A stretch of DNA of 64,000 nt from an uncultured Bacteroides sp. (GTDB lineage Bacteria > Bacteroidota > Bacteroidia > Bacteroidales > Muribaculaceae). Numbering within the stretch: position 1 is the stretch's first letter; each line of letters begins with the position of its first letter. Shown here piece by piece: positions 18,060 through 33,710 of this stretch. The notes beneath the pieces were generated by a model that was given only the letters and a program-made list of their open reading frames with translations, did not search any database and was not told where the DNA came from. Where the stretch lies: NCBI GenBank assembly GCA_964555405.1, contig CAZKSF010000001.1:26536-90535 (forward strand), written 5' to 3'. The position numbers and the translations under genes are program-made.

Positions 18060-19553
18060 ATGGCATTCCCAATTCTGACAGCGGAAGAAGCGGCTGCGCT
18101 TATTCCCAACGACGCTAATGTAGGATTCTCCGGATTTACTGCTTCGGGTTCGCCTAAGGTAGTTACCGAGGCTATTGCAGCCCGCGCTATTCGCGAGCAT
18201 GAAGCCGGTCGTCCCTACAAGATCAATATTTTCACAGGTGCATCGACAAACAACCACGCCGACGGTGCATTGGCTCGTGCCAACGCCATCAACCGCCGTA
18301 CACCTTATCAGAACACTCCCGATCTGCGCAAGCGCATCAACTCTCACGACGCGCATTACTTCGATCTTCACCTCTCCGAGCTCGCTCAGAAATTCCGCTA
18401 TGGTTTTTACGGTGAACTCGACTTCGCGCTTATCGAAGTGTGTGAAGTACGTGATAACGGTGACGTGGTTCTCACGACAGGTGCCGGAAACGTCCCCACA
18501 TACGTAAACCGTGCCAAGCATGTCATTCTGGAGTTGAACCGTAAGGTTCCCGTTACCATGTACGGCATGCACGACATCTATATGCCTGCCGATCCTCCTG
18601 CCCGCCGCGAGATACCCATCTACACTCCAAGCGATCGCATCGGTGAACCGATCGTACATATCGATCCCAAGAAGATAGTAGGTGTCGTTTACAGCGACGA
18701 CTATGATGGAATCAAAGGCTTCACCGCACTCGATGACACCACTCTTACAATCGGTGCCAATGTATGCGGATTCCTTATCTCGGAACTTCGCGCCGGTCGT
18801 CTGCCGAAATCATTCCTCCCCATCCAGTCGGGTGTAGGTAATGTTGCAAACGCCGTTCTTTACGGTCTTGGCGACAGCAAGGAAATCCCACCGTTCTCGA
18901 TGTACACCGAAGTAATTCAGGACGCGGTTATCGAACTTATGAAGCTCGGCAAATGCAAATTCGGCTCTACATGCTCGCTTACCATCAGCAATGCGATGGA
19001 GGCGGAACTGTATTCGAATCTCGACTTCTTCCGCGACAAGATCGTGATACGACCAGCTGAAATTTCCAATAACCCGGAAGTTATACGTCGTCTTGGTGTC
19101 ATCGCCATGAACACGGCTCTTGAAGCTGATATCTTCGGTAATATCAACTCAACGCACGTAACCGGCACACGCATGATGAACGGTATAGGTGGTTCGGGTG
19201 ACTTCACACGCAACGGATATCTCTCGATATTCTCTTGCCCGTCAACCACTAAAGGTGGCTTGATCAGTAATATTGTACCTATGGTATCGCATGTCGATCA
19301 TTCCGAGCACTCAGTCGATGTCCTCATCACGGAGCAAGGTGTTGCCGATCTCCGTGGCAAAGATCCGGTACAGCGCGCCGAAGAGATCATCAACAACTGC
19401 GCTCATCCCGACTATCGTCCTCTGCTTACCGATTATCTCCGTATGGGCAAGGGCGGACAGACACCTCACAGCCTGAAGGCTTCGTTGGCGTTCCACACCG
19501 AATTCCTCGACTCCGGTTCGATGCGTAACGTTGACTTCTCCAAATACGAATAA
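18060..19553 (+). CDS. Succinate CoA-transferase (acetyl-CoA hydrolase/transferase family)
   Basis: GFSGFT, GAST, PIQSGVGNVAN, NTALEADIFGNINS, MNGIGGSGDF and ITEQGVADLRG. Confidence 0.92.
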   Translation: MAFPILTAEEAAALIPNDANVGFSGFTASGSPKVVTEAIAARAIREHEAGRPYKINIFTGASTNNHADGALARANAINRRTPYQNTPDLRKRINSHDAHYFDLHLSELAQKFRYGFYGELDFALIEVCEVRDNGDVVLTTGAGNVPTYVNRAKHVILELNRKVPVTMYGMHDIYMPADPPARREIPIYTPSDRIGEPIVHIDPKKIVGVVYSDDYDGIKGFTALDDTTLTIGANVCGFLISELRAGRLPKSFLPIQSGVGNVANAVLYGLGDSKEIPPFSMYTEVIQDAVIELMKLGKCKFGSTCSLTISNAMEAELYSNLDFFRDKIVIRPAEISNNPEVIRRLGVIAMNTALEADIFGNINSTHVTGTRMMNGIGGSGDFTRNGYLSIFSCPSTTKGGLISNIVPMVSHVDHSEHSVDVLITEQGVADLRGKDPVQRAEEIINNCAHPDYRPLLTDYLRMGKGGQTPHSLKASLAFHTEFLDSGSMRNVDFSKYE

Positions 19554-19585: not shown

Positions 19586-19630
19586 AGTTGCACCATCCTG
19601 ACATATGCCGGATGGTGCAGCTCTTTTTTT
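19586..19630 (+). terminator. Intrinsic terminator
   Basis: agttgcaccatcc / ggatggtgcagct stem followed by a T-run. Confidence 0.85.
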
Positions 19631-19687
19631 TAGATTAACGTATGTCATTGTACAGGATCTAAGAAAAAATAAGTATCTTTGCGGTGA

Positions 19688-19902
19688 AAATGGTTGCTCT
19701 GCCATCCGGGAGCGGAGGCGTTATAGAGCATCAAAAGGGAATGAGGTGTGATTCCTCGACAGTACCCGCTGCTGTATTTCCCCGCTTATTTAATGCACAA
19801 TGCATAATTGGACGTTGATAAGCAAGGTTTTCGCAACCTGCCACTGGTCACTATCCGACCGGGAAGGCGCGAATAAACCGGGATAAGTCAGAAGACCTGC
19901 CA
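19688..19902 (+). promoter_or_regulatory. Cobalamin riboswitch
   Basis: Conserved B12-element blocks in order: aaaagggaa, ggtg, cagtacccgctgctgta, gccactg, gggaaggc, aagtcagaagacctgcc; a -7 box TAtcTTTG lies at 19674-19681. Confidence 0.95.
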
Positions 19903-20012
19903 TTTTTTACATTTCGTGCAGTGCGCGGGAGGGCGGCTGTCATGGAGCTATAGCAGAAGGAACAGACATACCTGTTTCGCTATTATTACATGATATAGAC
20001 AACACCACTACT

Positions 20013-20055
20013 CCCGTTGACGAGCATAAGCATCGTTGACGGGTTTATTGTTTTG
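20013..20055 (+). terminator. Attenuator terminator in the riboswitch leader
   Basis: Stem cccgt-tgacga / tcgttg-acggg followed by tttattgttttg. Confidence 0.6.
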
Positions 20056-20129
20056 TGGCGTACCTTTTTCCCGTTGCACATCCGGAAACAGCAAACTTTC
20101 ACAGGCTAACGATTCATACTGCAACGGAC

Positions 20130-22067
20130 ATGGGTAAACTTCCACTTCCTATCCTCATATTGATAATAATACTTCCAGCTTATTGCTATGCCGCTACCAC
20201 AGAATCATCTGACACCGCTAAGATTCTGAATGAGGTGGTAGTGACAGCCCATAGACGTCATCTGGCAACCGTTCAGGCGCTTTCCGGTACCGAACTGAAG
20301 GCATTGTCCTCAACATCAATTGCCGATGCACTGAAATATTTCGCAGGAGTACAGATAAAGGACTATGGCGGTCTGGGAGGTATGAAAACAATCAATGTAC
20401 GCTCACTCGGCGCCCAGCATGTAGGGGTATATATCGATGGCGTGCGAATCACCAATGCACAAAACGGGACTGTCGATCTCGGAAAATTTTCCTTATCCAC
20501 TCTTGAATCAGTCTCTCTGTATAATGCCAATAAACTTGACCGATGCCAATCGGCATCGGAATACGCTTCGGGCGCTACCGTCTACCTGCGCACACGGCGT
20601 CCTGAGTCCGATTCTCTCTCAGTGATGGCATCCTTAGGTTCATTTCACACTTATAAAGGTCGTCTTACCGTGCAAATACGGCGCAAAGGCTGGAGCGGAT
20701 TCATTGATGGCGAATATCTTAATTCCAAGGGAGACTATCCCTTTCGATACAAGTCGGAATACGAGGATACCGTCGGCATACGTCGCAATTCCGACATCAA
20801 CTGCTACCGGATAGAAGGGGGTGCATTTCATAAAGGTTTTTCTTCACATGCCTACTGTTATGTATCCGAACGCGGCGTACCTGGAGGTATAGTAAGGCGT
20901 TTGTCAGACAAATATGTAAATGTAGGACGTGAATGGGATGTCGACTGGTTCGGACAAGCTTCATGGTCACACCAGTTTTCCTCCCGTCATCAGATATTGT
21001 TCAATGCCAAATACACTCAGGAATATCTGCGGTATTGTACCGACTATCCGGAAAACCAGAATACAGCCCGGGTGAACAATCATTATTGGCAAAAGGACGC
21101 ATTCGCTTCAGCCGCTTATACTTTAACACCATGCCGGTTTGCATGGATAAATGTAGGTTACGACGCACGCCTGTCATGGCTTAAGGCAGATTTGAAAAAT
21201 TTTCATACTGTCCGCCGTCTCGACCAGAAAGCTGTAGTTGCCGCCCAGGTTACTTATTCCAATACCAGATTGGCGGCATCTCTCCTTTACCAGCATTATA
21301 AAGACCATACTTTGACACATGCCGGAGCCGCGGATCCTCTAAGCAAGTTCACACCGTCGGTCACGTTCGGTTATTCACTAAAAGGATTTTCTTTTCGGGC
21401 ATGGTATAAGCGTATCTTCCGTGTACCCACATTAAATGATCTTTACTATACCCAGGCTGGGAACCGCAGCCTGAAACCGGAATATACACGTCAATACAAT
21501 TTAGGCGCGGAGTACCATTTCAATAATTCATTATGGTCGGCTGACGTGCAGGCTGACGTTTATATCAACCGTATTGAGAACCGTATAGTGTGCCTCCCTC
21601 TGAAGGGTACATATTCATGGTCGATGATGAATTATGGAGAAACCTACTGCCGTGGTCTGAATTCTACCCTGTCAGGAAGATATTCCCCCGGTCACTGGAC
21701 ATTTTCATTACTCGCCTCCCTCACGTGGCAACGCGATCTCAACCGCACCAATCCCGAAAGCCCGTCATACAACCGTCCGATCTGCTACTCCCCCTCACTG
21801 TCATACGGCATAACCGGTATTGTCTGTTGGAATTGGTTCTCTCTCACTCTATCAAGTCTGCACGTCGGTGAACGCATGTGGTCATATGCCGATCCGGAGG
21901 ATGTACTGCAACCGTATAACAACATCGACCTCAAATTGACTGCCGTCGGACGATTGCTTATCGCGTCACTTGAAATAAACGATCTGCTCGATGTGCAATA
22001 TGAACATGTACCGCGCTACCCCATGCCGGGTCGCAGTTTTACTTTTTCTCTCACTGTATCGTTTTAA
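20130..22067 (+). CDS. TonB-dependent receptor, probable cobalamin transporter (BtuB-like)
   Basis: Signal peptide, TonB box LNEVVVTA, plug segment IKDYGGLGGMKTINVRSLG and C-terminal Phe; directly under a B12 riboswitch. Start placed at ATG 20130. Confidence 0.88.
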   Translation: MGKLPLPILILIIILPAYCYAATTESSDTAKILNEVVVTAHRRHLATVQALSGTELKALSSTSIADALKYFAGVQIKDYGGLGGMKTINVRSLGAQHVGVYIDGVRITNAQNGTVDLGKFSLSTLESVSLYNANKLDRCQSASEYASGATVYLRTRRPESDSLSVMASLGSFHTYKGRLTVQIRRKGWSGFIDGEYLNSKGDYPFRYKSEYEDTVGIRRNSDINCYRIEGGAFHKGFSSHAYCYVSERGVPGGIVRRLSDKYVNVGREWDVDWFGQASWSHQFSSRHQILFNAKYTQEYLRYCTDYPENQNTARVNNHYWQKDAFASAAYTLTPCRFAWINVGYDARLSWLKADLKNFHTVRRLDQKAVVAAQVTYSNTRLAASLLYQHYKDHTLTHAGAADPLSKFTPSVTFGYSLKGFSFRAWYKRIFRVPTLNDLYYTQAGNRSLKPEYTRQYNLGAEYHFNNSLWSADVQADVYINRIENRIVCLPLKGTYSWSMMNYGETYCRGLNSTLSGRYSPGHWTFSLLASLTWQRDLNRTNPESPSYNRPICYSPSLSYGITGIVCWNWFSLTLSSLHVGERMWSYADPEDVLQPYNNIDLKLTAVGRLLIASLEINDLLDVQYEHVPRYPMPGRSFTFSLTVSF

Positions 22068-22088
22068 ACAAACCCTAAATATCAATCA

Positions 22089-23375
22089 ATGAACAGAATC
22101 CGTTCCTTTTTAACCTGTCTGTCGGTATGTGCTGTAATAACGTCTCCGGCATTAGCACAGGAAAAAATCATTCTTCTCAATGAAGGTACCTGGCAGTCTG
22201 ACAACGGCAGAATCACTTACTTTGAGGATGGCAAGATAATCAGCAACCAATGGTTCCGTGATGTAAACGGATCCAAGCTTGGAGACACGCCAAATGACAT
22301 CATCGCTGTCAACGACAATCTGATAGCCATCGCTTTAAACTGGTCGAATATCGTGCAGTTCATAACTCCCGAAGGCGAGGCTGTCGCAGCTACCGAGGAT
22401 GTTCCCAACAACCGCAAGTTAGCCTCCGATGGCGAATACGTTTATGTTACTTCCTACGCTCACGAGTGTCTTGTAGGGAACACCTATGAAACTTTCACCA
22501 AAGGATTTGTCGCCAAGATAGATGCAACTACATTCCGGGTAGTTTCAGCTTGTGAAGTGGGCTACGAGCCGGAGGGGATCGCCTTCTATAAGGGTCACCT
22601 TTTCGTTGCCAATTCCGGCGGATACGCCTATCAGGAAGCACACGACTACGAAAAGACCGTAAGCATTATCGACGCAGAAACAATGGAAGTAGTCCGCACC
22701 GTCGATACCGGACAGATCAATCTCTACGGCAATATGTCGCAGTGCGGGCAGTATCTGTGCATCAATTCACCCGGCGACTACTACACTACACCGGCATCCA
22801 CAATTATCTTCGATTGCCAGGCTGCACTTACCGGTAGTCCTGATGAGGAATGTTTCGTTAAACTTGACTACTCCGCGACGTACAGCTGTGTCACCACCGA
22901 TGACAGATTCTATGCCATAGGCTCCCGCTATTCCTATTATACCGGAGAATACACATTCAATTATATTATCATCGATCCTGCCGATGTGATGGAATCGGCA
23001 GGACATACGGGGATTGATAACCATTTCCCCGGGACGGTTCTTGAGGACTTGAAGAAGATGGATATGCCATACGGCATATATGTCAATCCATATACCGGCT
23101 ACATCTATGCGACAGATGCCGGAGGATTTGTCGAGGGAGGTACGCTTTACCAATGGTCGCCCGAAGGAACATTGCTGGGTAAACATGGCGTATACATCAA
23201 TCCGGGACATTTCCTTGCCCTTAAACCCGACAATTGGGAAGGCGGTATTGAAGAAATCAATGCCGGATCAACCGACCCGGATACCCCGTTATACAACCTC
23301 CAGGGTATAAGGATAACAAAACCGGTTCCCGGTGAAATATACATACAACGAGGCAAAAAATTCATTTTACACTAA
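22089..23375 (+). CDS. YncE/BtuG-like beta-propeller with T9SS-type C-terminal domain
   Basis: LNEG...FRDVNGSKLGD, VGYEPEGIA...LFVANSGG and GDYY motifs; SPI-type signal peptide (ALA-Q); tail GIEEI...LYNLQGIRI...IYIQRGKKFILH. Confidence 0.8.
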   Translation: MNRIRSFLTCLSVCAVITSPALAQEKIILLNEGTWQSDNGRITYFEDGKIISNQWFRDVNGSKLGDTPNDIIAVNDNLIAIALNWSNIVQFITPEGEAVAATEDVPNNRKLASDGEYVYVTSYAHECLVGNTYETFTKGFVAKIDATTFRVVSACEVGYEPEGIAFYKGHLFVANSGGYAYQEAHDYEKTVSIIDAETMEVVRTVDTGQINLYGNMSQCGQYLCINSPGDYYTTPASTIIFDCQAALTGSPDEECFVKLDYSATYSCVTTDDRFYAIGSRYSYYTGEYTFNYIIIDPADVMESAGHTGIDNHFPGTVLEDLKKMDMPYGIYVNPYTGYIYATDAGGFVEGGTLYQWSPEGTLLGKHGVYINPGHFLALKPDNWEGGIEEINAGSTDPDTPLYNLQGIRITKPVPGEIYIQRGKKFILH

Positions 23376-23391
23376 TCATAAATTCTTCCAT

Positions 23392-25602
23392 ATGAAACTA
23401 AAGCAATTATTGATTCCGCTGATGTTTTCAACATTGGCTTTCAGTGCCCAGGCTATCCGGGTAAATGTCTGGACAATGAACAACACCGACAAGATACTGA
23501 AACTTGTCAACAAAGAAACCGGAGAAAATATCGATGTCGGCGATATCGACGGATGGACCTACGACTTTACAGCGGATCCCGGTCTGTATGAATTCAGCAT
23601 GTATGAACCCGATGGAGAAACTTTTATCGGCGCTCTTGAATATGAGATCGTTGACGATGGCAAAGAACCGACTATAATGCTGTATAGAGCAACCGTCACA
23701 GTAAACAATTCTAACACTGACGGATCCGGATGGATTGAGGACGAAGATTATACCGTGACAGTCGGACTAAAAACTCAGCAGAATGATCCCATAGTCATTC
23801 GTACCGGGCACAACTCCGCTGGCACATTAACCATGCTTACCCGATCCGGAACAACGATTGCCGGTACAGCGATTCCATCCGAGGCGAAAAAAGTTGAAGG
23901 ATTTATGGAATATTCCGCCACAAGAGCGGTAACCAATAACTCTACACTAGATCTGACAATGCCTATGGGTGTGACCGCCACGGTGACTCTGCCAAAGGAT
24001 GCCGGAATACAGATCGGAGCCAAGAAAGCTCATTTTGTCGATTTTACACTTTTCGAACCGGTTGATGAAACTGTCGAGGGAGATAACAGGATTATTTCAT
24101 ACAGAGTCCTCCCTAATTCAACGATCAATTACCGGACATGGCGTGAGGGCGGACTGACACGTGCAGGATACTTCACTTCCGGCAAAGATGCAACGACAAC
24201 GTCCATATTTTTTATCGGCGAGGACTATGAAGCTTTCGATCCAAAGGAATATAATCAGGACGTGAATTCCAACAATGGGTATGAGACCGGTGACATTTTT
24301 ATAAATGGCAATGAGCGCGGACACATCAGTCTTGCAGTCGGTGAATCATTCAAGGCTCACGCAATGCGTTCCTGGCAATTGACCGACAATTCCACCGGCA
24401 ATTACTTTATGGAACCCGATTTTCACTACACTGTGATTGGAACGGATGGGAAACCATTGGAAGGAGTACTCGAACTTAACTCGAAGGAAGGTTCTGCATG
24501 GACCGAGATAAAAGCTTTGGCGGAAGGTACGGCAATCGTTCTCGTCACTTATGATGCCATGGGAGTGAACTATTATAGTAATGGAGTGCGTAAACCCTAT
24601 ATGGGTGGAGAAATCTGGGGTGCCATCTGGCCTGAGAACACTGCGGTATTTGTAGTGACCGTAGGACAGCAGGAATCATTTGCCGATCCTCTGATGATTG
24701 TAAATGAAGACTATAATACAGGTACTCTTAAGGTAGCCGGAAAATATGTCGATGCCGAACACGACGTATTTTATTATCTTGACAGTGAGGAGGGTTTCAA
24801 ATATACATTCACGCCTGAAAACGTTGAAGACATTACAATCGCTTATCCTGAAATTACAGAAACTTCCGTCAGCTATAATGGATTTACTTCCGAGGGAGTA
24901 ATCAGGAATACGGACGGCTCCTGGACTGTATTACTGAAGCACGGTCGCCAGATAGTCAGGATGACAGATGCCTCCGGTGCATCTGCTTATCAGGTGATTC
25001 GAGGCAGAAAATGTCACCGGGAAATCGAAAACACAACACGTCCGGGGAGCGATATATATTATCCGGGAGATAAGGTAAAAATCCAATATTCCGGTCTTTT
25101 CCACCCGGCGAACAAACTTGCCGGTATCTACAATATGTCGGCATATGTGACCTATAATGGAATCCCGAACGGTACGAGTCTGATATTAGGAGCCGGTCAG
25201 TACACATTCGGTTCCGCACCCGGTGCGCAGGCGGTCACAATTGACATCCCGGCAGACTTTGATACTGAAGCAAATCCTACGATCTCACTCACTGACGGAG
25301 TGATTCAGGTGAGCGGTTACGGAGATCCGGTAGGTAATCACCGTTTCATTGATCCCGAGAATGGTAGAAATGCCAATTTCACGGCGCAGGCACACAAGAC
25401 TTATTTTGGATCAATTCCGGATACGGAATTATCTGTTCATCCATACAATTCATCCATAATCAATGTAGAGTCTGATGTGGAGGATTTTGGCAATGCCCGT
25501 TGGTTCAATTTGCAGGGTATTGAAGTGGCAGCTCCTGATGCCGGCTCACACGGCGTATTTATCCGCGTGACCAACGGTAAAACCGAAAAAATAGTTTTAT
25601 AA
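23392..25602 (+). CDS. Hypothetical secreted beta-rich protein with T9SS-type C-terminal domain
   Basis: Signal peptide MKLKQLLIPLMFSTLAFSAQA; tail SSIINV...RWFNLQGIEV...GVFIRVTNGKTEKIVL; no catalytic motif recognised. Start placed at ATG 23392. Confidence 0.75.
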   Translation: MKLKQLLIPLMFSTLAFSAQAIRVNVWTMNNTDKILKLVNKETGENIDVGDIDGWTYDFTADPGLYEFSMYEPDGETFIGALEYEIVDDGKEPTIMLYRATVTVNNSNTDGSGWIEDEDYTVTVGLKTQQNDPIVIRTGHNSAGTLTMLTRSGTTIAGTAIPSEAKKVEGFMEYSATRAVTNNSTLDLTMPMGVTATVTLPKDAGIQIGAKKAHFVDFTLFEPVDETVEGDNRIISYRVLPNSTINYRTWREGGLTRAGYFTSGKDATTTSIFFIGEDYEAFDPKEYNQDVNSNNGYETGDIFINGNERGHISLAVGESFKAHAMRSWQLTDNSTGNYFMEPDFHYTVIGTDGKPLEGVLELNSKEGSAWTEIKALAEGTAIVLVTYDAMGVNYYSNGVRKPYMGGEIWGAIWPENTAVFVVTVGQQESFADPLMIVNEDYNTGTLKVAGKYVDAEHDVFYYLDSEEGFKYTFTPENVEDITIAYPEITETSVSYNGFTSEGVIRNTDGSWTVLLKHGRQIVRMTDASGASAYQVIRGRKCHREIENTTRPGSDIYYPGDKVKIQYSGLFHPANKLAGIYNMSAYVTYNGIPNGTSLILGAGQYTFGSAPGAQAVTIDIPADFDTEANPTISLTDGVIQVSGYGDPVGNHRFIDPENGRNANFTAQAHKTYFGSIPDTELSVHPYNSSIINVESDVEDFGNARWFNLQGIEVAAPDAGSHGVFIRVTNGKTEKIVL

Positions 25603-25703: not shown

Positions 25704-26399
25704 TTAAAAATTGAAGGGATACTGCGAGGATGATTCCGCCATCTGAACCTCATATTCTTCCCGGTTAAAACTGAACAACTGAGGTGGACGATGTGCCAGA
25801 CGCATGTAGGCTATGCCTTCGGGCTTGAGTAACTCTGTCGCAATGACCTTACGGTAAAAATTACGCCGGTCATATTCCGTATTATTAAGAACCTCCATAA
25901 TACGCTGCAATTCACTTATTGAGAATTTAAATGGAAGTAATTCAAAAACTACCGGGTGTGTATGCGAACGGTTGCGTAAAGCTGTAAACGCGGCGTCTAC
26001 TATAAGATCATGATCGAGGACTGTCTCGTCAGGAAGTTCCTCGATAGGGAACCATGCAGCCCGTAAAGCATTATTTCGGTTATTTATCTGAACGCTACCT
26101 TTTGCCACCAATGCCATGACGCCTACGGCGACTGACCGTTCACGTGGATCACGTGCTGGCTCACTGAACACACCAAATTGCTCCATATATGCGCCGATTA
26201 TTCCAGTCTCCGAGTTAAGGATACGGATCGCGCTCAACTCCACAGTTTCATTTTCTTCAAGGAAACCTTCGGGTAGTGACCATGCCCCTTCAAAGGGATC
26301 GGTATTTCGCTGCACCAATAGAACGTTTAGTCCCACACCGTCGAAGCCAAAGACAACGACATTGACAGCAACCGCCGGATGATGAATATTTTTACTCAT
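25704..26399 (-). CDS. NrtR-family transcriptional regulator (Nudix plus winged helix)
   Basis: VNVVVFGFD, WSLPEGF, QFGVF..P.RDPRER, FDH-like LDH and C-terminal DRRNFYRK...HRPPQLF. Confidence 0.88.
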   Translation of the reverse strand: MSKNIHHPAVAVNVVVFGFDGVGLNVLLVQRNTDPFEGAWSLPEGFLEENETVELSAIRILNSETGIIGAYMEQFGVFSEPARDPRERSVAVGVMALVAKGSVQINNRNNALRAAWFPIEELPDETVLDHDLIVDAAFTALRNRSHTHPVVFELLPFKFSISELQRIMEVLNNTEYDRRNFYRKVIATELLKPEGIAYMRLAHRPPQLFSFNREEYEVQMAESSSQYPFNF

Positions 26400-26515: not shown

Positions 26516-28840
26516 TTAGAACGGATACCCGATTGCAAGGTGCAGAGCCATCCTTCTCCAGAAGCTTCCGGTCATATTATAATAGCCGCTTTTTCCAGTT
26601 TCGTAAGGTGCGTGAATACCTATTCCGAGATCAAGACGGAGTACCATCATGCCCAGATCGAAACGCAAACCCGTACCTGTGCCGAGTGCCAGATCACGCA
26701 GGAATGTGTTTGCACGCAATTCACCGCCCGGACGGTTAGGATCCTTTTTAAGCAGCCACACATTTCCCGCGTCCAGGAATAGTGCGCCATGAAGCGGACC
26801 CACAATCGGGAAGCGGTATTCCACATTTGCCTCAAACTTGAAAGTACCTGTCTGGTCAAAATAACCGTTAATCTCACTGGCGGGTGCCTTGTAGCTTCCC
26901 GGACCGATACTGCGCACCGTAAATGCCCTGACTGAGTTGGCGCCGCCACAGTAGAATTGCTCGCTGTACGGCACCTGGCTGGCATTACCATAGGCATGGG
27001 CCGCTCCTGCAGCCACACGCGAAACGATCCAGTTGTCACCCGTCAACCGGCGACCGTAAACCAACTGTGTCTGTCCCTTTACGAACTGCGAGAAAGGTGT
27101 GCCGAACAGATACTTCTCGCCGTGCTTGCCACACAACTCGTATATGCTCCAGAATACATTGCCGGCTTCCTGTACGGTAAACTGCCAGTTAATGGTGTTG
27201 TCGCGGTCAAGTATCCTGTCATATATATAGCTGAACTGCATCTGCGGTACGAACTGGTCACGGAAACTCATGGCAATCGCCTGGTTGGCATCCATTATCG
27301 AATCAAAGACAGGAGTGGTGTTGAGCAACTTGTTATATGTGAGCTTGAACAGTGTGAAACTGGTGTTTACATGTCGTGTGGCACGCCAGTCGTAGCTGAA
27401 TGAAGTATTGAATTGAGCCATCCTGAAATAATGAGGACGGTTAAGCAGGTCGCCGTTCAGCGATATCTTGGTCCAGTTGACACTACGGCGTGATCGCGGT
27501 ATGAATCGCGGAGCAAGCAGGCGCGGGAACGACAATGTTCCGGTCAGACCGATCTCATATGAGTTGAATACCGATCTGTTCGCTTCGTGACCGGTCTGCC
27601 ATTCATATGTGCCGTTCAACGCCACTGTCAGCAGTTCTCCCCCGCCGAAAAGATTACGGTTGGTGAGTCCGATATTTACACCCGGTCCGATGTAACTGTT
27701 CGATTTCGACGACACGTTCATTTCAAAGCTTACCTCCAGCGGTTTGTCGAAAGTACAGGATATGTCCACATCGAGTACATGCTCTCCGTCCTTTTCGAGA
27801 GCGCTGTCCGGATATGCCTGTATATCGATACCGTTGAATATGCCCAGACGTGCAAGATACGTCTGCGTGCGGTTCATATCGTTAACCGAGAACACTTTTC
27901 CTTTACGGAAGGTGATACATTCCGGAATTAGTTTTTCACGCAGGCGTGACGGGCGCATCACTATCACTTTACCGCGCGAAGTATCGAGTGTATCGGGTGT
28001 TCCCCCGCCATTGTTGCGGTATACCCGGGTCGTGACAGTTCCGGTGCGATAGCGCCACAATGCCTGTGGCGCCACGTTGGAGGCTACTGTCATGCGTAAC
28101 GCTATATGACCGGGATTTATCAGTGAATCCGCAAGATATTCGATGAATTCCGGTTTAAAGAAATAATATCCCCTGTTTCGCAATGCGTTGGTAATGCGTA
28201 TACGTTCCGCCGACAATGAATCCGTACAATATCGCACACCTTTTTGCAGGTATGTGCCCTTATGTGCTATGGAATCGATAAAATGATACAGCATACAGGT
28301 ATCAGGGAGAAGTTCTATTGAATCGATATTGAAAACCGGACCCGGATCAACTTTATACAGTATGCTCGCCTTACGCTTGTTCTTCCGTTGCACGAGTTCG
28401 TAGGACGCGCTTCCGCGAAAATAACCGTTGTTATCGAGTATCTGACCTATCATGTGCGTGCGCACTTCCGGACGTACATCTGACACAAGCACAGGTTCAC
28501 TCACAAGAAGATCATACATCCAGTGTTTAAATCCTTTGCCCGGGTCATCCCAGTGATTCCACACCCACAATCCCAAGGGGAAAGGATAGCGCAGATAGCC
28601 TCCGCTCAACGGAAGCATATTGTTAGGCTTGACATATACCGCCGAGCTAACCTGCGAACTGACCCCTTCGGCAAGCTTCTCCCCTTTTGGCATATCATAT
28701 TTGACTCCCTTTATACCGGTATAAAGAATTTCGCCTTCAGGCAAACGGCTGGTAGTAGAGCACGATGTTATACCGCAAGCCGCTGCTATAAGTAACAGAT
28801 GCAGCATATATCGTGCGAGTGATGAATTGAAGCTCTTCAT
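26516..28840 (-). CDS. TamA/BamA-family outer membrane assembly protein (lipoprotein)
   Basis: Lipobox ITSC, POTRA-like region, FYCGGANSVRAF, FLDAGNVW, GLRFD and terminal IGYPF; downstream of the TamB-like gene. Confidence 0.9.
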   Translation of the reverse strand: MKSFNSSLARYMLHLLLIAAACGITSCSTTSRLPEGEILYTGIKGVKYDMPKGEKLAEGVSSQVSSAVYVKPNNMLPLSGGYLRYPFPLGLWVWNHWDDPGKGFKHWMYDLLVSEPVLVSDVRPEVRTHMIGQILDNNGYFRGSASYELVQRKNKRKASILYKVDPGPVFNIDSIELLPDTCMLYHFIDSIAHKGTYLQKGVRYCTDSLSAERIRITNALRNRGYYFFKPEFIEYLADSLINPGHIALRMTVASNVAPQALWRYRTGTVTTRVYRNNGGGTPDTLDTSRGKVIVMRPSRLREKLIPECITFRKGKVFSVNDMNRTQTYLARLGIFNGIDIQAYPDSALEKDGEHVLDVDISCTFDKPLEVSFEMNVSSKSNSYIGPGVNIGLTNRNLFGGGELLTVALNGTYEWQTGHEANRSVFNSYEIGLTGTLSFPRLLAPRFIPRSRRSVNWTKISLNGDLLNRPHYFRMAQFNTSFSYDWRATRHVNTSFTLFKLTYNKLLNTTPVFDSIMDANQAIAMSFRDQFVPQMQFSYIYDRILDRDNTINWQFTVQEAGNVFWSIYELCGKHGEKYLFGTPFSQFVKGQTQLVYGRRLTGDNWIVSRVAAGAAHAYGNASQVPYSEQFYCGGANSVRAFTVRSIGPGSYKAPASEINGYFDQTGTFKFEANVEYRFPIVGPLHGALFLDAGNVWLLKKDPNRPGGELRANTFLRDLALGTGTGLRFDLGMMVLRLDLGIGIHAPYETGKSGYYNMTGSFWRRMALHLAIGYPF

Positions 28841-28874
28841 TATTGTCGGGTAATGAGCATTTGGTTTAATAAAG

Positions 28875-31800
28875 TTACAGCGAGACGTTCGACGGAGTTT
28901 CTGACGGTTCTTCAGGCTTTACAGCCTCCGCGACGGTCTTTTTCCGTGGACGGAGATGGCGGAGGAAGCGGAATACATCGCGGATCGAACCGACCTTCTT
29001 TTTATACACGAATCCGACACCGGTCTGCGTCACTTCGCCTTCGAGAATACTTTCATATCCGGTGTGACGGAACAGACGTACATACATTGATCCGCTCTTG
29101 TTAATCACGTACTCAAAAGAGATATCGCTTATAAGATTCTGTGAAAAATTCTCGTCCACATTATCATCAGTGGAATAATTTCCACCTACGACAATCTTGA
29201 AACGATCATTGAACAACGATTTCGACACACTGTAACTGTAGCTGGTGGTAGTGCCTGTACTGCCGTCAGTGGTTGTTTCATACTGATTCATTCCGAACGA
29301 CAGATCCACTCCCTTGATTGTTTTTGCAGCCCACGCGTTGAGACGTCCTGTCAGGAACGAATAAAGTGGATTACCCGACAGATTGGCGCTTCCGCGCGTC
29401 TCCGGACCATTGTACACATTAGTAAGCAACAGGTTCATTGCCTCGCTTGCGCGCTGTTGTGGAGTCATCGAAGCAAGTTCGTTCTGCACCGTTATGTCAT
29501 TGTCGGTGGAGAGGTCGAACGACAGATCGAGCGCTGACAATGTTCCCCCTACTCCGAGTGTGACTGCGAAATCAACTATACGTGAATTCTGACCCGACTG
29601 CACGATGTTGGCTTTTACATTGTCCACCGCCTTGATGTTTAGCTGGGGATTCATCATGTCGCCGGTAAATGCCACATAACTCCCCTCCTGAAAAATGAAA
29701 TTCTTTTCCGAAAGCACCGGTGGAATACTGTATCGTACGTTACCTCCATTGATATTGAACCTACCGATAAGCCTGCCGTTGTTCTGAGGATTCATGTTGA
29801 ATGAAAGCAAGCCGTCGCCCTGCACCGACACACGGTTTGATCCGTCGGTGTTGAGATATACGTTCAATGTGGTACCCTTCGAAACGGTAAGTTCGGCATT
29901 CAGATTCATCATCATGCCCGGAGCAGATATGGTATCGGCATTCAGAACTTGTGTGGTATCGCTGAAATTCACGAATTTCACCATTTCCTCGTCTGACTGT
30001 GACCCCACCGCCAATCCACTGTCATCCATTATATATGTCACATTTGTTCCCTGAAGCAGGTTAAGGTCGGCATCTACGTTAAGCAACGTCATGTTTCCAT
30101 GCACATCGACATCAGCGTTGATGAATGCTTTACCGAAAGCATCGGCGCCACCGCGCGCACGGTTCGTATTCATGATCTGCATGTTCCGTGCGGTCATTTT
30201 CAGGTCTATCTGGACATCGGACAGTTTACGTGCATCTACTGTTCCGTTTACGCTCAGCGGATTATCGTTTGCGGCAGTTATCGCGAAACCGTCGAAATGC
30301 ACGATATTGCTGTCCACCGGAATCTGTCCGTCCGAGAATTTGAAAGTGGAACCAAGCATTCCCACATTGACAGCCGTTGAATCGAACTGGATGAAGCCGT
30401 TGAACACCGGCTCTATCATTGAACCCGTTATATCCATAGTACCGTTTATCATACCGCTCAGACGGGCATAATCTTTGGGCAGGAACGGATTGAGGATATG
30501 CAACGGGAAATGTATCATCGAAAAATCGAGGTCAAACGGATGAATCGCCGTTGTATCGTTCAGATGACCTCTTGCGGTTATCACCTTTACACTGTCGACC
30601 AGAAGAGAGGCATCGGCATGCAATGAGCCGTTTGCCGAATTGGTTACATCCAGCCCCACTCGGAACGATCCCACACGGTCTCTGCCGTAATACAGATCGG
30701 TCAGGCTCACCACTCCCGTACCGGTGAGTTCGTTTGAGTTCCATTTGAAACGGAGATCGGCTCCCAGGTCACCCTTGACAGGAGGAGCGAACGGTGATAC
30801 CGCCAGCCAGTCGGAAAGGTGTATATCCGAAAGCTGCATTACCACATCTTCCTGTTCGTTTCCGAGCGAATCAGCCGCTTCGTCATGCTCGGTATAAAGC
30901 CTGATGGAACTGTTTTCATTACGCATCGTCAGATCGGCGTCAATATGCCGGGTAACGAAATTATATGTCACAAAATTATCTTTATTCAGCTCCCATTTCT
31001 TATATCCGATTGTGGGAGTAAACGGCACAAAACGCACTGTTACGGCTGAATCGGCAGCTATTGCCGACAGACCGAGCAAAAATCCCTGATCCCCCTCTAT
31101 ATTCGATTGTCTCAGGAGTGCCGATACTCGGTCATCACCTAAGAATCCCGATAGGGTGACATGGGCGAAGCCGTCCATCGTACCGCGGCGGTTATTGATC
31201 TTGGCTGTATAAGCCAGATACTTGCCATGCTGGATAACGCCTACCGAAAGTGTATCGATGCGCGTACTGCCGCTGATCAAGCCGAGTATGTTGGCATTCA
31301 TGGATATCAGGGAGTCGTTGGACAATGATAGCCGCGCACTGTTCACACTCATTTTCGAATCACGGAGAAAATCCCCGGCAATATTGTTCATTCCTCCCAT
31401 TTCCGCGATTATCGCCAGCGGTGGCAAAGTCTGCTCAAGCGCTATGATATCCGCATTGCGTTGTGAGATTATAGAGTCGATCTGAACTGAGGTCGCGGTG
31501 ACGCGTGCCAGCAAGGTATCAAGTCCGCATCCTGCCGCCATACGTGCATGTAAGTCACCGTTGTTGAGTTCTCCGGTGACAGTCGAATCGGAAGTCACCA
31601 GCCGGACCCCTATTTCGGGGGTGGAAAGCACCATATCAGGCATTGCCCATTTGAGGGAAGTCACATTCAGCCCGGCATCAATATTTTTGAAGTCAGCCGA
31701 TGCCGAACCCTCCGACTTGATTCCCATCGAACCCTGCATGGCAGATTCGGTGATTTTCATCGCGCCGAGATCAATATTATGCACCATTCCGTCCAGTGAC

Positions 31801-33710
31801 CAGGTAATGCCGGAATCGGCTACCAGGGCACGGAAATCCATATCAATGTCCGCATCTCTGTTCATTGAGCGCAATGATCCCGTGGCTTGCCCCTCGTCAA
31901 GCTTCGCATTCATGGTAATGTTCCGGTATGACTGATCCATGTATACCACATCGGTTACATCGGCTACAAAATTCAGCTGTGTGCCCGACTTGAAAAAATC
32001 CAGTCCTTTACCTTCTGCCGCGAGTGATGCCGTGACATCCCCTACTCCAAGAGATGGCATAAACGAGGCTACCGGGAATTTACGCACATCCAGGTTCGCC
32101 TTATATCGTTCGCCAAGCTGTACCCAGTTCCCCTTGAAACCGATATTGCCTTTCCCTGATCTGATACCTAAAGTACCGGAAGTCATCCGGGGAGAATAGG
32201 TGATGTCACCGGTAAGGACAGTATGCGGTATATTTATTTCTTTTGCAAGACGTGCCTCGAGGAGCGTCGGCTTTATCGAGTTAAGCCCCATTGCATCGAC
32301 CTTAAGCGATATTTTTCCGTCAATACGGTCTGCGTCAAAAGGATTGCTCACCTCTCCACTCCCTTCCAACGAAAGGAACCGCGCTATTGACGCACTGAGT
32401 TCTTTCACATTGATGTGCCCGGATGTCCCGTCTAAATCGGCATGGAGTATCGCCGGCGAACGGGGAACGCCCCGGAGCATCGGCACAATCGACGGCATGG
32501 CAAGTTCGGCATCCTCCAGTCCGAGCTGACCATCGAGCTTAAGCTGTAACGGCAACGATGCGTCAGTGGTGAGATCTCCCACCCCCATAGCGGCATTCAA
32601 CGATACCGACGAATAGTCAGTAGCTATTTTGAATTGATCGGCACGCATGAGTTCATTTTCCATGCTGAACACACCGCTCGCGCTGAGCGCTATGCCACAC
32701 CTCTCGCGTCCATACAGACGTGTCAGCGGAACGGTAATCGAAGTACCGCGGTTATAGAAGGAATCAACTGAAATCTCGACATCGTTTACCTGCAGATAAT
32801 TCATGTCGATACCGGGAAGAGGCGCGGCGCCACGCATGGCATATATTGCCGAATCCGCATTGAGCCGCAAGGTGCCGGCGGTTATTGTCCACAATGACGA
32901 ACTATCAGTCGCTACAGTATCCACAGGAACTGGGCGTTGCGGATGTGAGGCAAGCCATTCCGCATCCGGGAGCAGATAAAGTACTTTTCCTAAGGCGGCA
33001 TCCAGCGACTTTACGGTTATGCTACGTGAACCCATATCGATGCGTCCGCCGTCGAGTTCCGCAGATGCCACATGGCAATCGAGAGAGTCGATCGTAGGAA
33101 GCATCTGCATGCGGTAATCCACATTTTTGAGTTCGAGTTTCCCGGCGGTTATCAGCCATGGGGTGGACGCAACCGTATCAACCGGTGTCGGGGTAATGGT
33201 ATCAAGCATTATCAGCGATACCCTTGCACCGTCCACCGTGGCATGACCTACATCTATTTTCCCTGATTTAAGCTGAAGATCGGTCTCATCGAGGTCAAAA
33301 CGGTCGATATGTGCCCGTAACCACATTGCAGAATCGGGAGTGCCTAACTGATAGAAACCATTGTCGAGTGTGACCGATTTGACATCGATGTTCAGTTTGA
33401 GCAACGCTAATGGTGAAACCGAAAGTGATGCCGAACGTGCCGTCACCATCGTGTCACCTGTCGCTTCAAGCACCACTACATCGTCGACTCCCACACGCAG
33501 CGGGAATTTGAGACTGAGTCTACCCACCTGAATATTCATACCGGTAGACGCGTTTACCTTGTCAAGGGCTATGGTTTTTACTTCATTCTGAACCCAGGGT
33601 ATATACAGAAGAGCCGGAATGATAACTATTAACGCTATCACTACCAACAGAGTCCATTTAAGAATCCTCGTTATGAGGTGGTATATTTTCTTTCCTATTG
33701 AAGTATCCAC
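28875..33710 (-). CDS. Translocation/assembly module TamB-like protein
   Basis: N-terminal membrane anchor, long beta-taco body and C-terminal DUF490-like segment (SKSLFNDRFKIVVGG...GVGFVYKKK); GTG start. Confidence 0.9.
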   Translation of the reverse strand: MDTSIGKKIYHLITRILKWTLLVVIALIVIIPALLYIPWVQNEVKTIALDKVNASTGMNIQVGRLSLKFPLRVGVDDVVVLEATGDTMVTARSASLSVSPLALLKLNIDVKSVTLDNGFYQLGTPDSAMWLRAHIDRFDLDETDLQLKSGKIDVGHATVDGARVSLIMLDTITPTPVDTVASTPWLITAGKLELKNVDYRMQMLPTIDSLDCHVASAELDGGRIDMGSRSITVKSLDAALGKVLYLLPDAEWLASHPQRPVPVDTVATDSSSLWTITAGTLRLNADSAIYAMRGAAPLPGIDMNYLQVNDVEISVDSFYNRGTSITVPLTRLYGRERCGIALSASGVFSMENELMRADQFKIATDYSSVSLNAAMGVGDLTTDASLPLQLKLDGQLGLEDAELAMPSIVPMLRGVPRSPAILHADLDGTSGHINVKELSASIARFLSLEGSGEVSNPFDADRIDGKISLKVDAMGLNSIKPTLLEARLAKEINIPHTVLTGDITYSPRMTSGTLGIRSGKGNIGFKGNWVQLGERYKANLDVRKFPVASFMPSLGVGDVTASLAAEGKGLDFFKSGTQLNFVADVTDVVYMDQSYRNITMNAKLDEGQATGSLRSMNRDADIDMDFRALVADSGITWSLDGMVHNIDLGAMKITESAMQGSMGIKSEGSASADFKNIDAGLNVTSLKWAMPDMVLSTPEIGVRLVTSDSTVTGELNNGDLHARMAAGCGLDTLLARVTATSVQIDSIISQRNADIIALEQTLPPLAIIAEMGGMNNIAGDFLRDSKMSVNSARLSLSNDSLISMNANILGLISGSTRIDTLSVGVIQHGKYLAYTAKINNRRGTMDGFAHVTLSGFLGDDRVSALLRQSNIEGDQGFLLGLSAIAADSAVTVRFVPFTPTIGYKKWELNKDNFVTYNFVTRHIDADLTMRNENSSIRLYTEHDEAADSLGNEQEDVVMQLSDIHLSDWLAVSPFAPPVKGDLGADLRFKWNSNELTGTGVVSLTDLYYGRDRVGSFRVGLDVTNSANGSLHADASLLVDSVKVITARGHLNDTTAIHPFDLDFSMIHFPLHILNPFLPKDYARLSGMINGTMDITGSMIEPVFNGFIQFDSTAVNVGMLGSTFKFSDGQIPVDSNIVHFDGFAITAANDNPLSVNGTVDARKLSDVQIDLKMTARNMQIMNTNRARGGADAFGKAFINADVDVHGNMTLLNVDADLNLLQGTNVTYIMDDSGLAVGSQSDEEMVKFVNFSDTTQVLNADTISAPGMMMNLNAELTVSKGTTLNVYLNTDGSNRVSVQGDGLLSFNMNPQNNGRLIGRFNINGGNVRYSIPPVLSEKNFIFQEGSYVAFTGDMMNPQLNIKAVDNVKANIVQSGQNSRIVDFAVTLGVGGTLSALDLSFDLSTDNDITVQNELASMTPQQRASEAMNLLLTNVYNGPETRGSANLSGNPLYSFLTGRLNAWAAKTIKGVDLSFGMNQYETTTDGSTGTTTSYSYSVSKSLFNDRFKIVVGGNYSTDDNVDENFSQNLISDISFEYVINKSGSMYVRLFRHTGYESILEGEVTQTGVGFVYKKKVGSIRDVFRFLRHLRPRKKTVAEAVKPEEPSETPSNVSL

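Follow-up and report, generated by a model that had tools for sequence, protein, structure and literature searches.

Organisation of the locus

The locus belongs to a mouse-gut-type Bacteroidales genome, Muribaculaceae-like in character. A cobalamin riboswitch is followed by the genes of a BtuB1-like receptor, a BtuG-family propeller and a third protein, all on the forward strand. The features are listed below with the evidence for each.

19590..19631 (+): hairpin and T-run; 9-bp stem GCACCATCC/GGATGGTGC, read directly in the sequence
19674..19918 (+): cobalamin riboswitch aptamer (Rfam RF00174)
20130..22067 (+): BtuB1-like TonB-dependent receptor, 645 aa (Plug and barrel domains; BtuB1 is the best PDB match)
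20130-20192 (+): SPI signal of the receptor, aa 1-21
20226-20249 (+): TonB-box-like LNEVVVTA, aa 33-40 of the receptor
22089..23375 (+): BtuG-family seven-bladed beta-propeller, 428 aa, non-lipidated (profile, AlphaFold2, Foldseek)
22089..22157 (+): SPI-type signal peptide of the propeller, aa 1-23, cleavage between ALA and Q (junction conserved in 120 homologs)
23223..23243 (+): beginning of the linker that joins the last propeller strand (PGHFLAL) to the tail (AlphaFold2 confidence, alignment)
23244..23372 (+): 43-aa tail of the propeller, by sequence a truncated homolog of T9SS type A sorting domains (hhalign, homologs)
23392..25602 (+): third operon gene, 736 aa, multi-beta-sandwich protein (AlphaFold2, synteny)
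23392-23454 (+): SPI signal of the third protein, aa 1-21
25450..25599 (+): C-terminal tail of the third protein, …WFNLQGIEVAAPDAGSHGVFIRVTNGKTEKIVL (aligns with the propeller tails)

The riboswitch matches the full RF00174 model (positions 1-189) with 92.3 bits against a gathering score of 31.5 (E 1.4e-21). The gap between btuB and the propeller gene is 21 nt, and the third gene begins 16 nt past the propeller gene. The hairpin upstream looks like the terminator of the preceding acetyl-CoA hydrolase-like gene and would therefore set the 5' boundary of the B12 unit; it was missed by a consensus terminator scan because its loop is 11 nt long. The locus is a conserved riboswitch-controlled cassette: the three genes are syntenic in L041, L124 and L127, the riboswitch is also found upstream of the last two, and the homologous cassettes occupy different genomic neighbourhoods.

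The elements named in the original prediction (riboswitch, BtuB-like receptor, BtuG-like propeller, SPI signal and tail) were all confirmed with their coordinates, but its account of the operon overlooked the tail-bearing third gene of the same cassette. It had also described the operon as lacking btuFCD, which holds for the operon and for the whole 64 kb stretch of DNA that was analysed (the window).

The receptor and the propeller

The receptor is composed of a Plug domain (PF07715) and a 22-strand TonB-dependent barrel (PF00593). All ten of its matches among PDB sequences are BtuB proteins, the best of which is BtuB1 of Bacteroides thetaiotaomicron (8blw_A, E 2e-77, full length). Its best NCBIfam family is TonB-B12, far under the model cutoff; the curated BtuB equivalog models (TIGR01779 / NF007926), which are built on proteobacterial BtuB, give 97.5 bits against a cutoff of 599.7 and 59.9 against 836. 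A GTG at 20055 was rejected as the start of the gene in favour of the ATG at 20130, and the same gene call is found on the independent assembly L001.

The propeller family profile matches BtuG1, BtuG2 and BtuG3 of the PDB with E-values from 3e-21 to 1e-14, and the AlphaFold2 (AF2) model of the propeller has a pLDDT of 86.9. The top 16 Foldseek matches of this model are BtuG or BtuBG structures of B. thetaiotaomicron, with TM(target) values of 0.7-0.8 except for the 626-residue 8blw_B chain (0.46). Profile and fold thus agree with the BtuG-like identity first proposed for this protein: it is a seven-bladed propeller homologous to BtuG1/2/3, and its gene adjoins btuB under the cobalamin riboswitch. 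In BtuG2, Glu55, Gly56 and Phe58 contact cobalamin and form an E-G-x-aromatic motif (bioRxiv 10.1101/2024.02.16.580637). The motif is E32-G33-T34-W35 in the propeller studied here, and three of its four positions (E32, G33 and W35) are invariant. Judging from these residues, the propeller would capture corrinoids.

Replacement of the lipid anchor by a C-terminal tail

The N-terminus of the propeller is MNRIRSFLTCLSVCAVITSPALA/QEKIILLNEG, where the slash marks the cleavage site (ALA/QEK). It is a Sec/SPI signal instead of a lipoprotein signal, and the lipobox Cys of a surface lipoprotein is missing from it. Among 120 close homologs of the propeller the junction xxA/Q-E-[KR]-I-I-L-L-N-E-G is conserved, a lipobox-like Cys is absent in 107 and the C-terminal tail is present in 119. 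The conserved xxA/Q site and the missing Cys are in agreement with the earlier view that this BtuG is not a lipoprotein.

The anchors were also counted across the BtuG family, using 106 full-length representatives at 50% identity. Lipobox and tail are mutually exclusive: 91 representatives carry the lipobox alone and end right after the PGHxA motif, four carry the tail alone, and the two are never combined. Across the family, the tail stands in for the lipobox.

The tail itself (aa 386-428) is GIEEINAGSTDPDTPLYNLQGIRITKPVPGEIYIQRGKKFILH, with the motifs GI..I, YNLQGIRI and GEIYIQRGKKFILH. The linker which precedes it is variable in both length and sequence in the alignment. The pLDDT of the AF2 model is below 50 over aa 385-396, a low-confidence stretch that extends into the first tail residues, and 85-93 over aa 400-428. 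About 30 of the 43 residues are structured, and the canonical domain is shortened by roughly one third, model positions ~31-48 being absent. To our knowledge, the tail is shorter than any CTD experimentally shown to drive secretion.

Distribution of the tail and its relation to T9SS sorting domains

The tail is one form of a very common C-terminal module, tGI…Y.L.G…GIYI.NGKK…stop, which is carried by SPI-signal proteins without relation to one another in Prevotella, Muribaculaceae and Alistipes. Among the matches listed in the genome scan, whose taxon labels are mostly MAG labels, 111 of 124 sites coding for IYI.NGKK lie 3-5 codons before the stop. The proteins concerned (again among the matches listed) number more than 100, range from 130 to 2000 aa and are functionally unrelated; 60 of the 74 with a complete 5' end have an SPI-like signal. 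Glycoside hydrolases and other evidently extracellular proteins carry the tail, and it is also C-terminal in the PDB constructs 4kca and 7jvi. By their labels, two of the tail-bearing contigs among the matches listed are Bacteroides (L012 and L032) and two others are Firmicutes bins. As a signal the tail is portable, and its occurrence on so many unrelated proteins points to a general sorting signal and not to a partner-specific dock.

Neither TIGR04183 nor PF18962 matches either tail of the window (propeller and third gene), even at E<=10. For 105 sampled tails, TIGR04183 is the top family (22 at E<=1, against ~0.006 expected by chance) and PF18962 matches 11; one of the 105 exceeds the curated cutoff. 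All ten long-spacer copies chosen for comparison match TIGR04183, from model positions 3-24 to 55-67 of 72, and a Muribaculum sp. copy with the same terminal motif (L109) reaches 23.5 bits against the TIGR04183 cutoff of 23. In hhalign, the BtuG tails align to 14 TIGR04183-positive tails with a probability of 98.5% (E 3.5e-15) and one 7-residue deletion, a score which is in part given by construction because this bridging set was chosen via the IYI.NGKK motif. On these alignments the propeller tail is homologous to bona fide T9SS type A sorting domains. The original prediction had taken the propeller for T9SS cargo and proposed a check with T9SS CTD HMMs. That check was negative, since the propeller tail is recognised by neither model; the cargo reading itself is supported in so far as the tail is homologous to type A CTDs, one copy of which is above the cutoff, and takes the place of the lipobox.

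The third gene

The core of the third protein has no match in Pfam, NCBIfam or PDB sequences. Its AF2 model (pLDDT 85.7) is all-beta, and Foldseek returns only generic multi-Ig matches. The tail is a second flavour of the propeller's tail class. Among the 120 listed members of the family, all except P0331 and P0332 have at their C-terminus one of several tail flavours that are interchangeable, and TIGR04183 matches none of 10 sampled tails. In P0132 propeller and third protein form one fused chain, which has only one tail, at its extreme C-terminus.

Proposed export and location of the propeller

Characterised BtuG proteins of Bacteroides are surface lipoproteins, and in B. thetaiotaomicron BtuG caps BtuB stably, over a very large interface (PMC10404256). 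We consider export of the non-lipidated BtuG by the T9SS likely. The loss of the lipid anchor and the gain of a shortened T9SS tail suggest a second, so far undescribed route for the surface display of BtuG; we found no published paper linking BtuG with the T9SS. The T9SS components are reported to be complete in 22 of 30 S24-7/Muribaculaceae genomes (PMC4936053), and none of the T9SS genes porK/L/M/N, sov, porU and porV is found within the window.

Based on the above, we infer T9SS dependence, cleavage of the tail with anchoring, corrinoid binding and a role for the third protein, as follows. Under corrinoid scarcity, the cell would make the BtuB1-like receptor, the corrinoid-capturing propeller and its large beta-sandwich partner. 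Propeller and partner would reach the periplasm via Sec and signal peptidase I, and the T9SS would carry them over the outer membrane. PorU-type processing would cut off the tail, and the new C-terminus would most likely be tethered to a surface glycolipid, which would leave the propeller able to cap BtuB. In a propeller the two termini are neighbours, and a C-terminal tether could therefore do the work of the lipid hinge at the N-terminus. Tethering would be more likely than release of the propeller as a soluble scavenger.

Lipidation of the propeller after all, at Cys14 (LSVC) or Cys10, is highly improbable. A lax lipobox pattern does fit L-S-V-C14 in the propeller and in 11 other close homologs, but both Cys residues sit within the hydrophobic core of the signal, and the Cys is missing from the 107 homologs noted above while xxA/Q is conserved. 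Position -1 of Cys14 is Val, and residues +2 to +5 (AVIT) are hydrophobic and extend the h-region, with no acidic stretch resembling a lipoprotein export signal, as is expected of Bacteroidetes surface lipoproteins. Also, in the AF2 model the mature QEKIILLNEG leads directly into the first propeller strand and leaves no linker. The SPI-type signal without a lipobox would also suit a propeller which stays periplasmic as a corrinoid-binding shuttle, that is, a BtuF substitute below BtuB, its tail having another role such as docking; the absence of btuF and btuCD from the operon and the window and the failure of the T9SS HMMs to recognise the tail are consistent with this. We regard it as quite unlikely, given that the family otherwise consists of surface-type lipoproteins with the same propeller (lipobox in 91 of 106 representatives), that the tail occurs exactly where the lipobox is lost, that glycoside hydrolases and other evidently extracellular proteins carry the same tail and that it grades into bona fide type A domains.

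An equally low probability is given to a tail which descends from a T9SS CTD and is no longer a secretion signal, for example a small beta-module docking onto BtuB, another outer-membrane protein or the third protein, while the protein would be exported in some other way. Such a module might be expected from the truncated, sub-threshold domain, from the compact and confident mini-sheet of aa 400-428 in the AF2 model and from the presence of the tail on both co-operonic proteins. Against it are the position at the very end of the protein, with 3-5 codons left to the stop (111/124 among the matches listed), the more than 100 functionally unrelated bearers (among the matches listed), the single terminal copy retained by the P0132 fusion and the fact that in Muribaculaceae no second route has been identified by which non-lipidated proteins cross the outer membrane (PMC4936053). 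A little less doubtful, though still unlikely, is the second option of the original prediction, in which the T9SS-exported propeller is released as a diffusible cobalamin scavenger ('cobalophore') and is not tethered to the surface. It shares the evidence for T9SS export, and some type A CTD cargo of Flavobacterium and Cytophaga is soluble on release. However, only 21 nt separate btuB from btuG and their synteny is kept in every cassette seen, BtuG of B. thetaiotaomicron is a stable BtuB lid with a very large interface (PMC10404256), and a free binder that holds its ligand so tightly would become a public good, whose benefit in a dense community is doubtful.

T9SS export with surface tethering, our preferred reading, can be extended beyond this locus. 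We see about even chances that a minimal T9SS signal of ~30-45 residues, missed almost completely by the curated models, is in use in Prevotella, Muribaculaceae and related gut Bacteroidales and that the B12 capture apparatus of Muribaculaceae (BtuG lid and multi-domain partner) has moved wholesale to it from the lipoprotein pathway, giving a BtuB-BtuG tethered by a C-terminal glycolipid instead of an N-terminal lipid. In the prevailing view, BtuG-type lids on TonB-dependent transporters are lipoprotein devices. It has been proposed that they help to explain why Bacteroides is so successful in the gut (PMC10404256). A clade with the propeller retained and its anchor exchanged would demonstrate that the architecture of the lid is independent of the lipoprotein export pathway, would offer a natural experiment on lid hinging and would connect the T9SS with micronutrient competition in Muribaculaceae, the family that dominates the mouse gut. 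Should the short tail function as a T9SS signal, the numbers of cargo proteins obtained with TIGR04183 or PF18962 (for example, 161 proteins in 30 S24-7 genomes) would be far too low, and the minimal requirements for T9SS CTD recognition would need revisiting.

Comparison with known systems

The receptor resembles BtuB1 of B. thetaiotaomicron (8blw_A) and BtuB of E. coli in being a 22-strand TonB-dependent receptor with a plug, a TonB box and riboswitch control. It differs in that it scores under the curated TonB-B12 equivalog cutoffs and in that its partner lid would be anchored another way. The third protein can be compared with BtuH, BtuJ and BtuK of B. thetaiotaomicron, which are accessory corrinoid-binding surface lipoproteins (PMC8941943, PMC12751083, PMC13616437): it is likewise an extra, here predicted, surface protein encoded in a riboswitch-controlled btuBG locus, but it is not a lipoprotein and has no detectable sequence or fold relationship to them (DUF4465 has no match in it, and BtuH/BtuK structures are absent among its 50 listed Foldseek matches).

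The CTD of P. gingivalis cargo is a beta-sandwich (PMC4804311). Like the T9SS type A CTDs (TIGR04183 / PF18962), the propeller tail is located at the extreme C-terminus of SPI-signal proteins, has the motifs Y.L.G..V and G.Y.(I/V)…K…K (model positions ~20-30 and 52-72) and has the taxon range of T9SS-bearing Bacteroidales. In contrast to them, it is ~43 aa long instead of 70-80, lacks the strands of model positions ~31-48, has a tGI motif in place of the N-terminal YPNP-type strand and falls under the HMM thresholds.

With BtuG1, BtuG2 and BtuG3 of B. thetaiotaomicron (8ptd, 8ptf, 8blw_B, 8bmy, 8bai, 8p97), the propeller has in common the family and the seven-bladed fold, a gene located directly 3' of btuB behind a cobalamin riboswitch, and the E-G-x-aromatic ligand-contact motif; its identity to BtuG1 and BtuG2 in structural alignment is ~22%. 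Unlike them, it is without an N-terminal lipid anchor, linker or hinge; its signal is of the SPI type, with Gln at +1, and its C-terminus is extended by a linker followed by the 43-aa tail.

Operon organisation

Based on the mapped elements and the gene calls, which agree, the riboswitch operon of the original prediction is confirmed, apart from a third gene which had been overlooked. The elements of the locus are as follows.

Elements of the cobalamin riboswitch operon and its flanks
Ending at 19553: acetyl-CoA hydrolase-like gene, upstream neighbour
19590-19631, + strand: hairpin followed by a T-run, found by eye in the sequence
19674-19918, + strand: full-length cobalamin riboswitch aptamer (92.3 bits, E 1.4e-21)
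19959-19978: weak hairpin and short T-rich run, between the aptamer and the btuB start
20130-22067, + strand: receptor gene (645 aa)
22089-23375, + strand: propeller gene (428 aa), 21 nt after the receptor gene
23392-25602, + strand: third gene (736 aa), 16 nt after the propeller gene
25704-26399: NUDIX/NrtR-like gene, next downstream, convergent

The three tightly spaced + strand genes behind the riboswitch form one transcription unit, which is regulated by the cobalamin riboswitch; all three gene calls are identical in an independent metagenome assembly (L001). The hairpin at 19959-19978 may belong to the expression platform; in a scan for promoter and terminator consensus, matches, including hairpins of this type, were no commoner than by chance or in shuffled sequence. 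The operon contains no btuFCD genes, as predicted, and none are found elsewhere in the 64-kb window.

Identity of the receptor and the propeller

The receptor contains a Plug domain and a TonB-dependent barrel, a signal-peptidase-I (SPI) signal and a TonB-box-like LNEVVVTA. Its PDB relatives are BtuB proteins only, the best being Bacteroides thetaiotaomicron BtuB1 (8blw_A, E 2e-77, full length), which bears out the BtuB-like assignment; its score is far under the cutoffs of the BtuB equivalog models, which are proteobacteria-based. Concerning the propeller, a profile of 71 homologs matches the structures of BtuG1, BtuG2 and BtuG3 (E 3e-21 to 1e-14), and the best 16 Foldseek matches of its AlphaFold2 model (pLDDT 86.9) are all B. 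theta BtuG or BtuBG structures. With btuB adjoining, the BtuG-like assignment holds as well. BtuG2 contacts cobalamin via an E-G-x-aromatic motif (Glu55, Gly56 and Phe58; bioRxiv 10.1101/2024.02.16.580637). The corresponding motif of the propeller is E32-G33-T34-W35, of which E32, G33 and W35 are invariant across the propeller family. We therefore regard the receptor as BtuB and the propeller as BtuG; the pair resembles BtuB1-BtuG1 most.

The third gene and conservation of the cassette

In its AlphaFold2 model (pLDDT 85.7), the third-gene protein is a chain of sandwich domains and all-beta throughout. No informative Pfam, NCBIfam or PDB sequence match was found with the single sequence or a profile, and Foldseek returned generic multi-Ig matches only, so an identity as a BtuH/BtuJ/BtuK-like protein is unsupported. 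The one PDB match obtained for its family, 3n6z, falls in an insert absent from the window protein. The family is large (at least 830 members, with an SPI signal) and uncharacterised, with a beta-sandwich core of ~500-700 aa and no Pfam or PDB relative found; its loci include window 23392-25602, P0132, L124:11304-13019 and L127:11324-14758. A GLUG-like insert of ~400 aa precedes the C-terminal tail in many members. All but two (P0331 and P0332) of the 120 members listed end in such a tail, in flavours that are interchangeable within the family.

Tail flavours of the third-gene family
RWFNLQGIEV…GIFIRV.NG.SEKV.L
YYNLQG…GLNIVR.SDG..RK..K
Y.L.G…GIYIRNGKK
Longer L..GVYIVR…K..VK forms

The three-gene cassette is conserved: the receptor gene recurs together with a tailed propeller and a tailed third protein in three other contigs (L041, L124 and L127), whose surroundings otherwise differ. 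A cobalamin riboswitch lies upstream in L124 and L127, and L041 ends too soon upstream. About 2 kb downstream of the L127 cassette (GCA_023666615.1) there is a gene for a PduO-type cob(I)alamin adenosyltransferase (L127:16835-17386), which fits a corrinoid-salvage neighbourhood. Also, the homologous protein P0132 (1132 aa) is a fusion of a propeller (residues 1-416, 44% identity) and the third protein (41% identity), so the two are functionally linked. The internal tail is lost in this fusion and a single tail is found at the very end, as expected for a signal needing a C-terminal position. By analogy with BtuH, BtuJ and BtuK, we would guess at an accessory corrinoid-binding or relay role for the third protein.

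Signal peptide and membrane anchor of the propeller

The N-terminus of the propeller is MNRIRSFLTCLSVCAVITSPALA/QEKIILLNEG (the slash marks the junction). It was compared with 120 homologs of 69-79% identity, whose named sources are Muribaculaceae or 'Prevotella sp.' MAGs and one 'Clostridium sp.'. The junction xxA/Q-E-[KR]-I-I-L-L-N-E-G is kept among these homologs and 107 of them lack a lipobox-like cysteine (the lipobox being the lipoprotein signal cysteine motif), in agreement with the predicted SPI signal (ALA-Q) without a good lipobox. Cys10 and Cys14 are thus incidental residues of the hydrophobic core, and lipidation at either was rejected as very unlikely on this comparison. Gln is the first residue of the mature propeller, and in the AlphaFold2 model the first propeller strand comes directly after it. 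Gln is common at the mature N-terminus of Bacteroidetes SPI substrates. Judged from these comparisons, the propeller is not a lipoprotein and its lipid anchor has been lost.

The BtuG family was searched with one representative per 50%-identity cluster among ~15 billion proteins, and 106 full-length representatives were classed. A lipobox, with the sequence ending just past the last propeller motif (PGHxA), is found in 91 representatives, whereas four lack a lipobox and carry a C-terminal tail; in no representative do the two occur together. The remaining 11 were left unclassed by pattern, several of them being evidently lipoproteins or truncated sequences. Of all the evidence for the tail replacing the lipid anchor in function, this mutual exclusion is the strongest.

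Nature of the C-terminal tail

The tail of the propeller comprises 43 aa (residues 386-428). Neither this tail nor that of the third gene matched TIGR04183, PF18962 or any other type IX secretion system (T9SS) model in NCBIfam and Pfam at E<=10, so the original prediction of T9SS cargo was not borne out by the curated models of the C-terminal domain (CTD). The same holds for TIGR04183 and ten C-termini of the third-gene family, long canonical-looking ones included. A profile of the tails matches two unrelated PDB constructs at their very C-terminal ends (E ~6e-6), both of them crystallised metagenomic proteins: a rumen GH43 arabinanase (4kca_A, residues 643-682) and the capybara CapCBM89 (7jvi_A, residues 811-842); a two-sequence profile of these two tails retrieved just two proteins in a database search. 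The T9SS mentions in the CapCBM89 paper refer to Fibrobacter alone (PMC8810776).

DNA encoding IYI.NGKK was scanned across 185,579 species genomes, which gave at least 124 matches at at least 120 loci. Among the matches listed, a stop codon follows 3-5 codons after the motif in 111 of 124, the proteins range from 130 to 2000 aa, and an SPI-like signal is present in 60 of the 74 with a complete 5' end. The taxa listed are almost all Prevotella/Prevotellaceae, Muribaculaceae (Muribaculum, Duncaniella and Sangeribacter), Alistipes, Alloprevotella and unnamed Bacteroidales. Conservation extends beyond the search pattern to a Y.L.G[RQ].V motif upstream and to a tGI motif. The short tail, tGI…Y.L.G[RQ].V…GIYI.NGKK plus 3-4 residues and a stop, is thus seen in more than 100 unrelated SPI-signal proteins (loci L004-L123, e.g. 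L109:1279-1608, L005:5139-5468, L034, L036 and L113). Some tail-bearing contigs lie in bins where no T9SS is expected (L012 and L032, Bacteroides; L027 and L061, Oscillospiraceae/Oscillibacter). Mis-binning or mislabelling is likely; if these labels are right, they are evidence against T9SS dependence.

TIGR04183 is by far the commonest family in the 105 C-termini scanned, matching 22 (last 110 residues, E<=1; chance expectation ~0.006), and PF18962 is found in 11. All ten copies picked for longer spacers match TIGR04183 with 13-21 bits, from model positions 9-24 to 55-67 of 72, and a Muribaculum sp. copy (L109) ending GIYIINGKKIIL reaches 23.5 bits against the curated cutoff of 23. In a profile-profile comparison with 14 TIGR04183-positive tails, the BtuG tails align end to end with one 7-residue deletion (probability 98.5%, E 3.5e-15), although the bridging tails were chosen via the terminal IYI.NGKK motif and that portion of the similarity is built in by construction. 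On this evidence, the propeller tail is a shortened type A sorting domain of the T9SS without the middle strands. The T9SS part of the prediction therefore stands as homology to type A CTDs.

The cutoff of TIGR04183 is reached by one of the 105 sampled short tails, so HMM-based counts of T9SS cargo for Prevotella, Muribaculaceae and Alistipes are probably large underestimates. That a very common tail escapes the curated CTD models in ~99% of samples may be of at least equal interest to T9SS specialists.

T9SS in Muribaculaceae and the rest of the window

The 64-kb window contains no T9SS genes; its remainder is made up of housekeeping genes, together with TamA/TamB and a polysaccharide utilisation locus of the alpha-mannan type. 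On the - strand at 26516-33710, immediately downstream of the NUDIX/NrtR-like regulator gene (25704-26399, convergent), there are a TamA-like Omp85 gene (774-aa ORF; the L001 call gives 763 aa) and a TamB-like gene of 1611 aa. The utilisation locus (40089-62476) contains two proteins with a GH76 domain, one of them 1138 aa long, SusC/SusD, GH92, a six-hairpin protein resembling glutaminase A and a 1361-aa ORF that lacks annotation. In Muribaculaceae (S24-7), Ormerod et al. (2016) found PorK, L, M, N, P, T, U, V, W, Sov, PorX and PorY in 22 of 30 genomes and identified no further secretion system; TIGR04183 proteins across the 30 genomes were just 161 in total (PMC4936053). A T9SS-CTD surface protein has been described in Muribaculaceae in a 2026 preprint (PMC13404670).

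Proposed mechanism and comparison with known systems

We regard the tail gained by the propeller as T9SS-derived on the strength of its homology. The propeller and the third protein would probably reach the periplasm via Sec and SPI, and the T9SS would then carry them over the outer membrane. A PorU-type sortase would take the tail off, and a surface glycolipid would be joined to the new C-terminus, as in type A cargo of P. gingivalis. Because the two termini of the propeller are adjacent, the C-terminal tether would exit roughly at the site of the N-terminal lipid linker of BtuG2, which would leave the propeller lid able to cap BtuB.

The propeller might instead be released as a soluble scavenger, though this is less likely than such tethering, because btuB-btuG linkage is strict and a large lid interface is known from B. 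theta. Three further readings differ in weight: the most serious is that the propeller is a periplasmic binder, followed by the tail being a docking module which has lost its secretion-signal role, whereas lipidation at Cys14 is very unlikely on the comparative grounds of the cysteine missing in 107 of 120 homologs.

Within the searchable literature, no relevant work was found to connect BtuG or cobalamin capture to the T9SS; neither the DUF4465 paper nor a review of September 2026 on the B. theta cobamide relay mentions the T9SS. The propeller belongs to the BtuG family by fold, sequence and context, yet it lacks the lipoprotein signal. Its tail is likewise homologous to the type A CTD of the T9SS, yet falls under the curated model thresholds. 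In BtuB2G2 the N-terminal linker makes a hinge (PMC10404256), whereas the propeller has no counterpart to it, since its mature N-terminus leads straight into the first strand.
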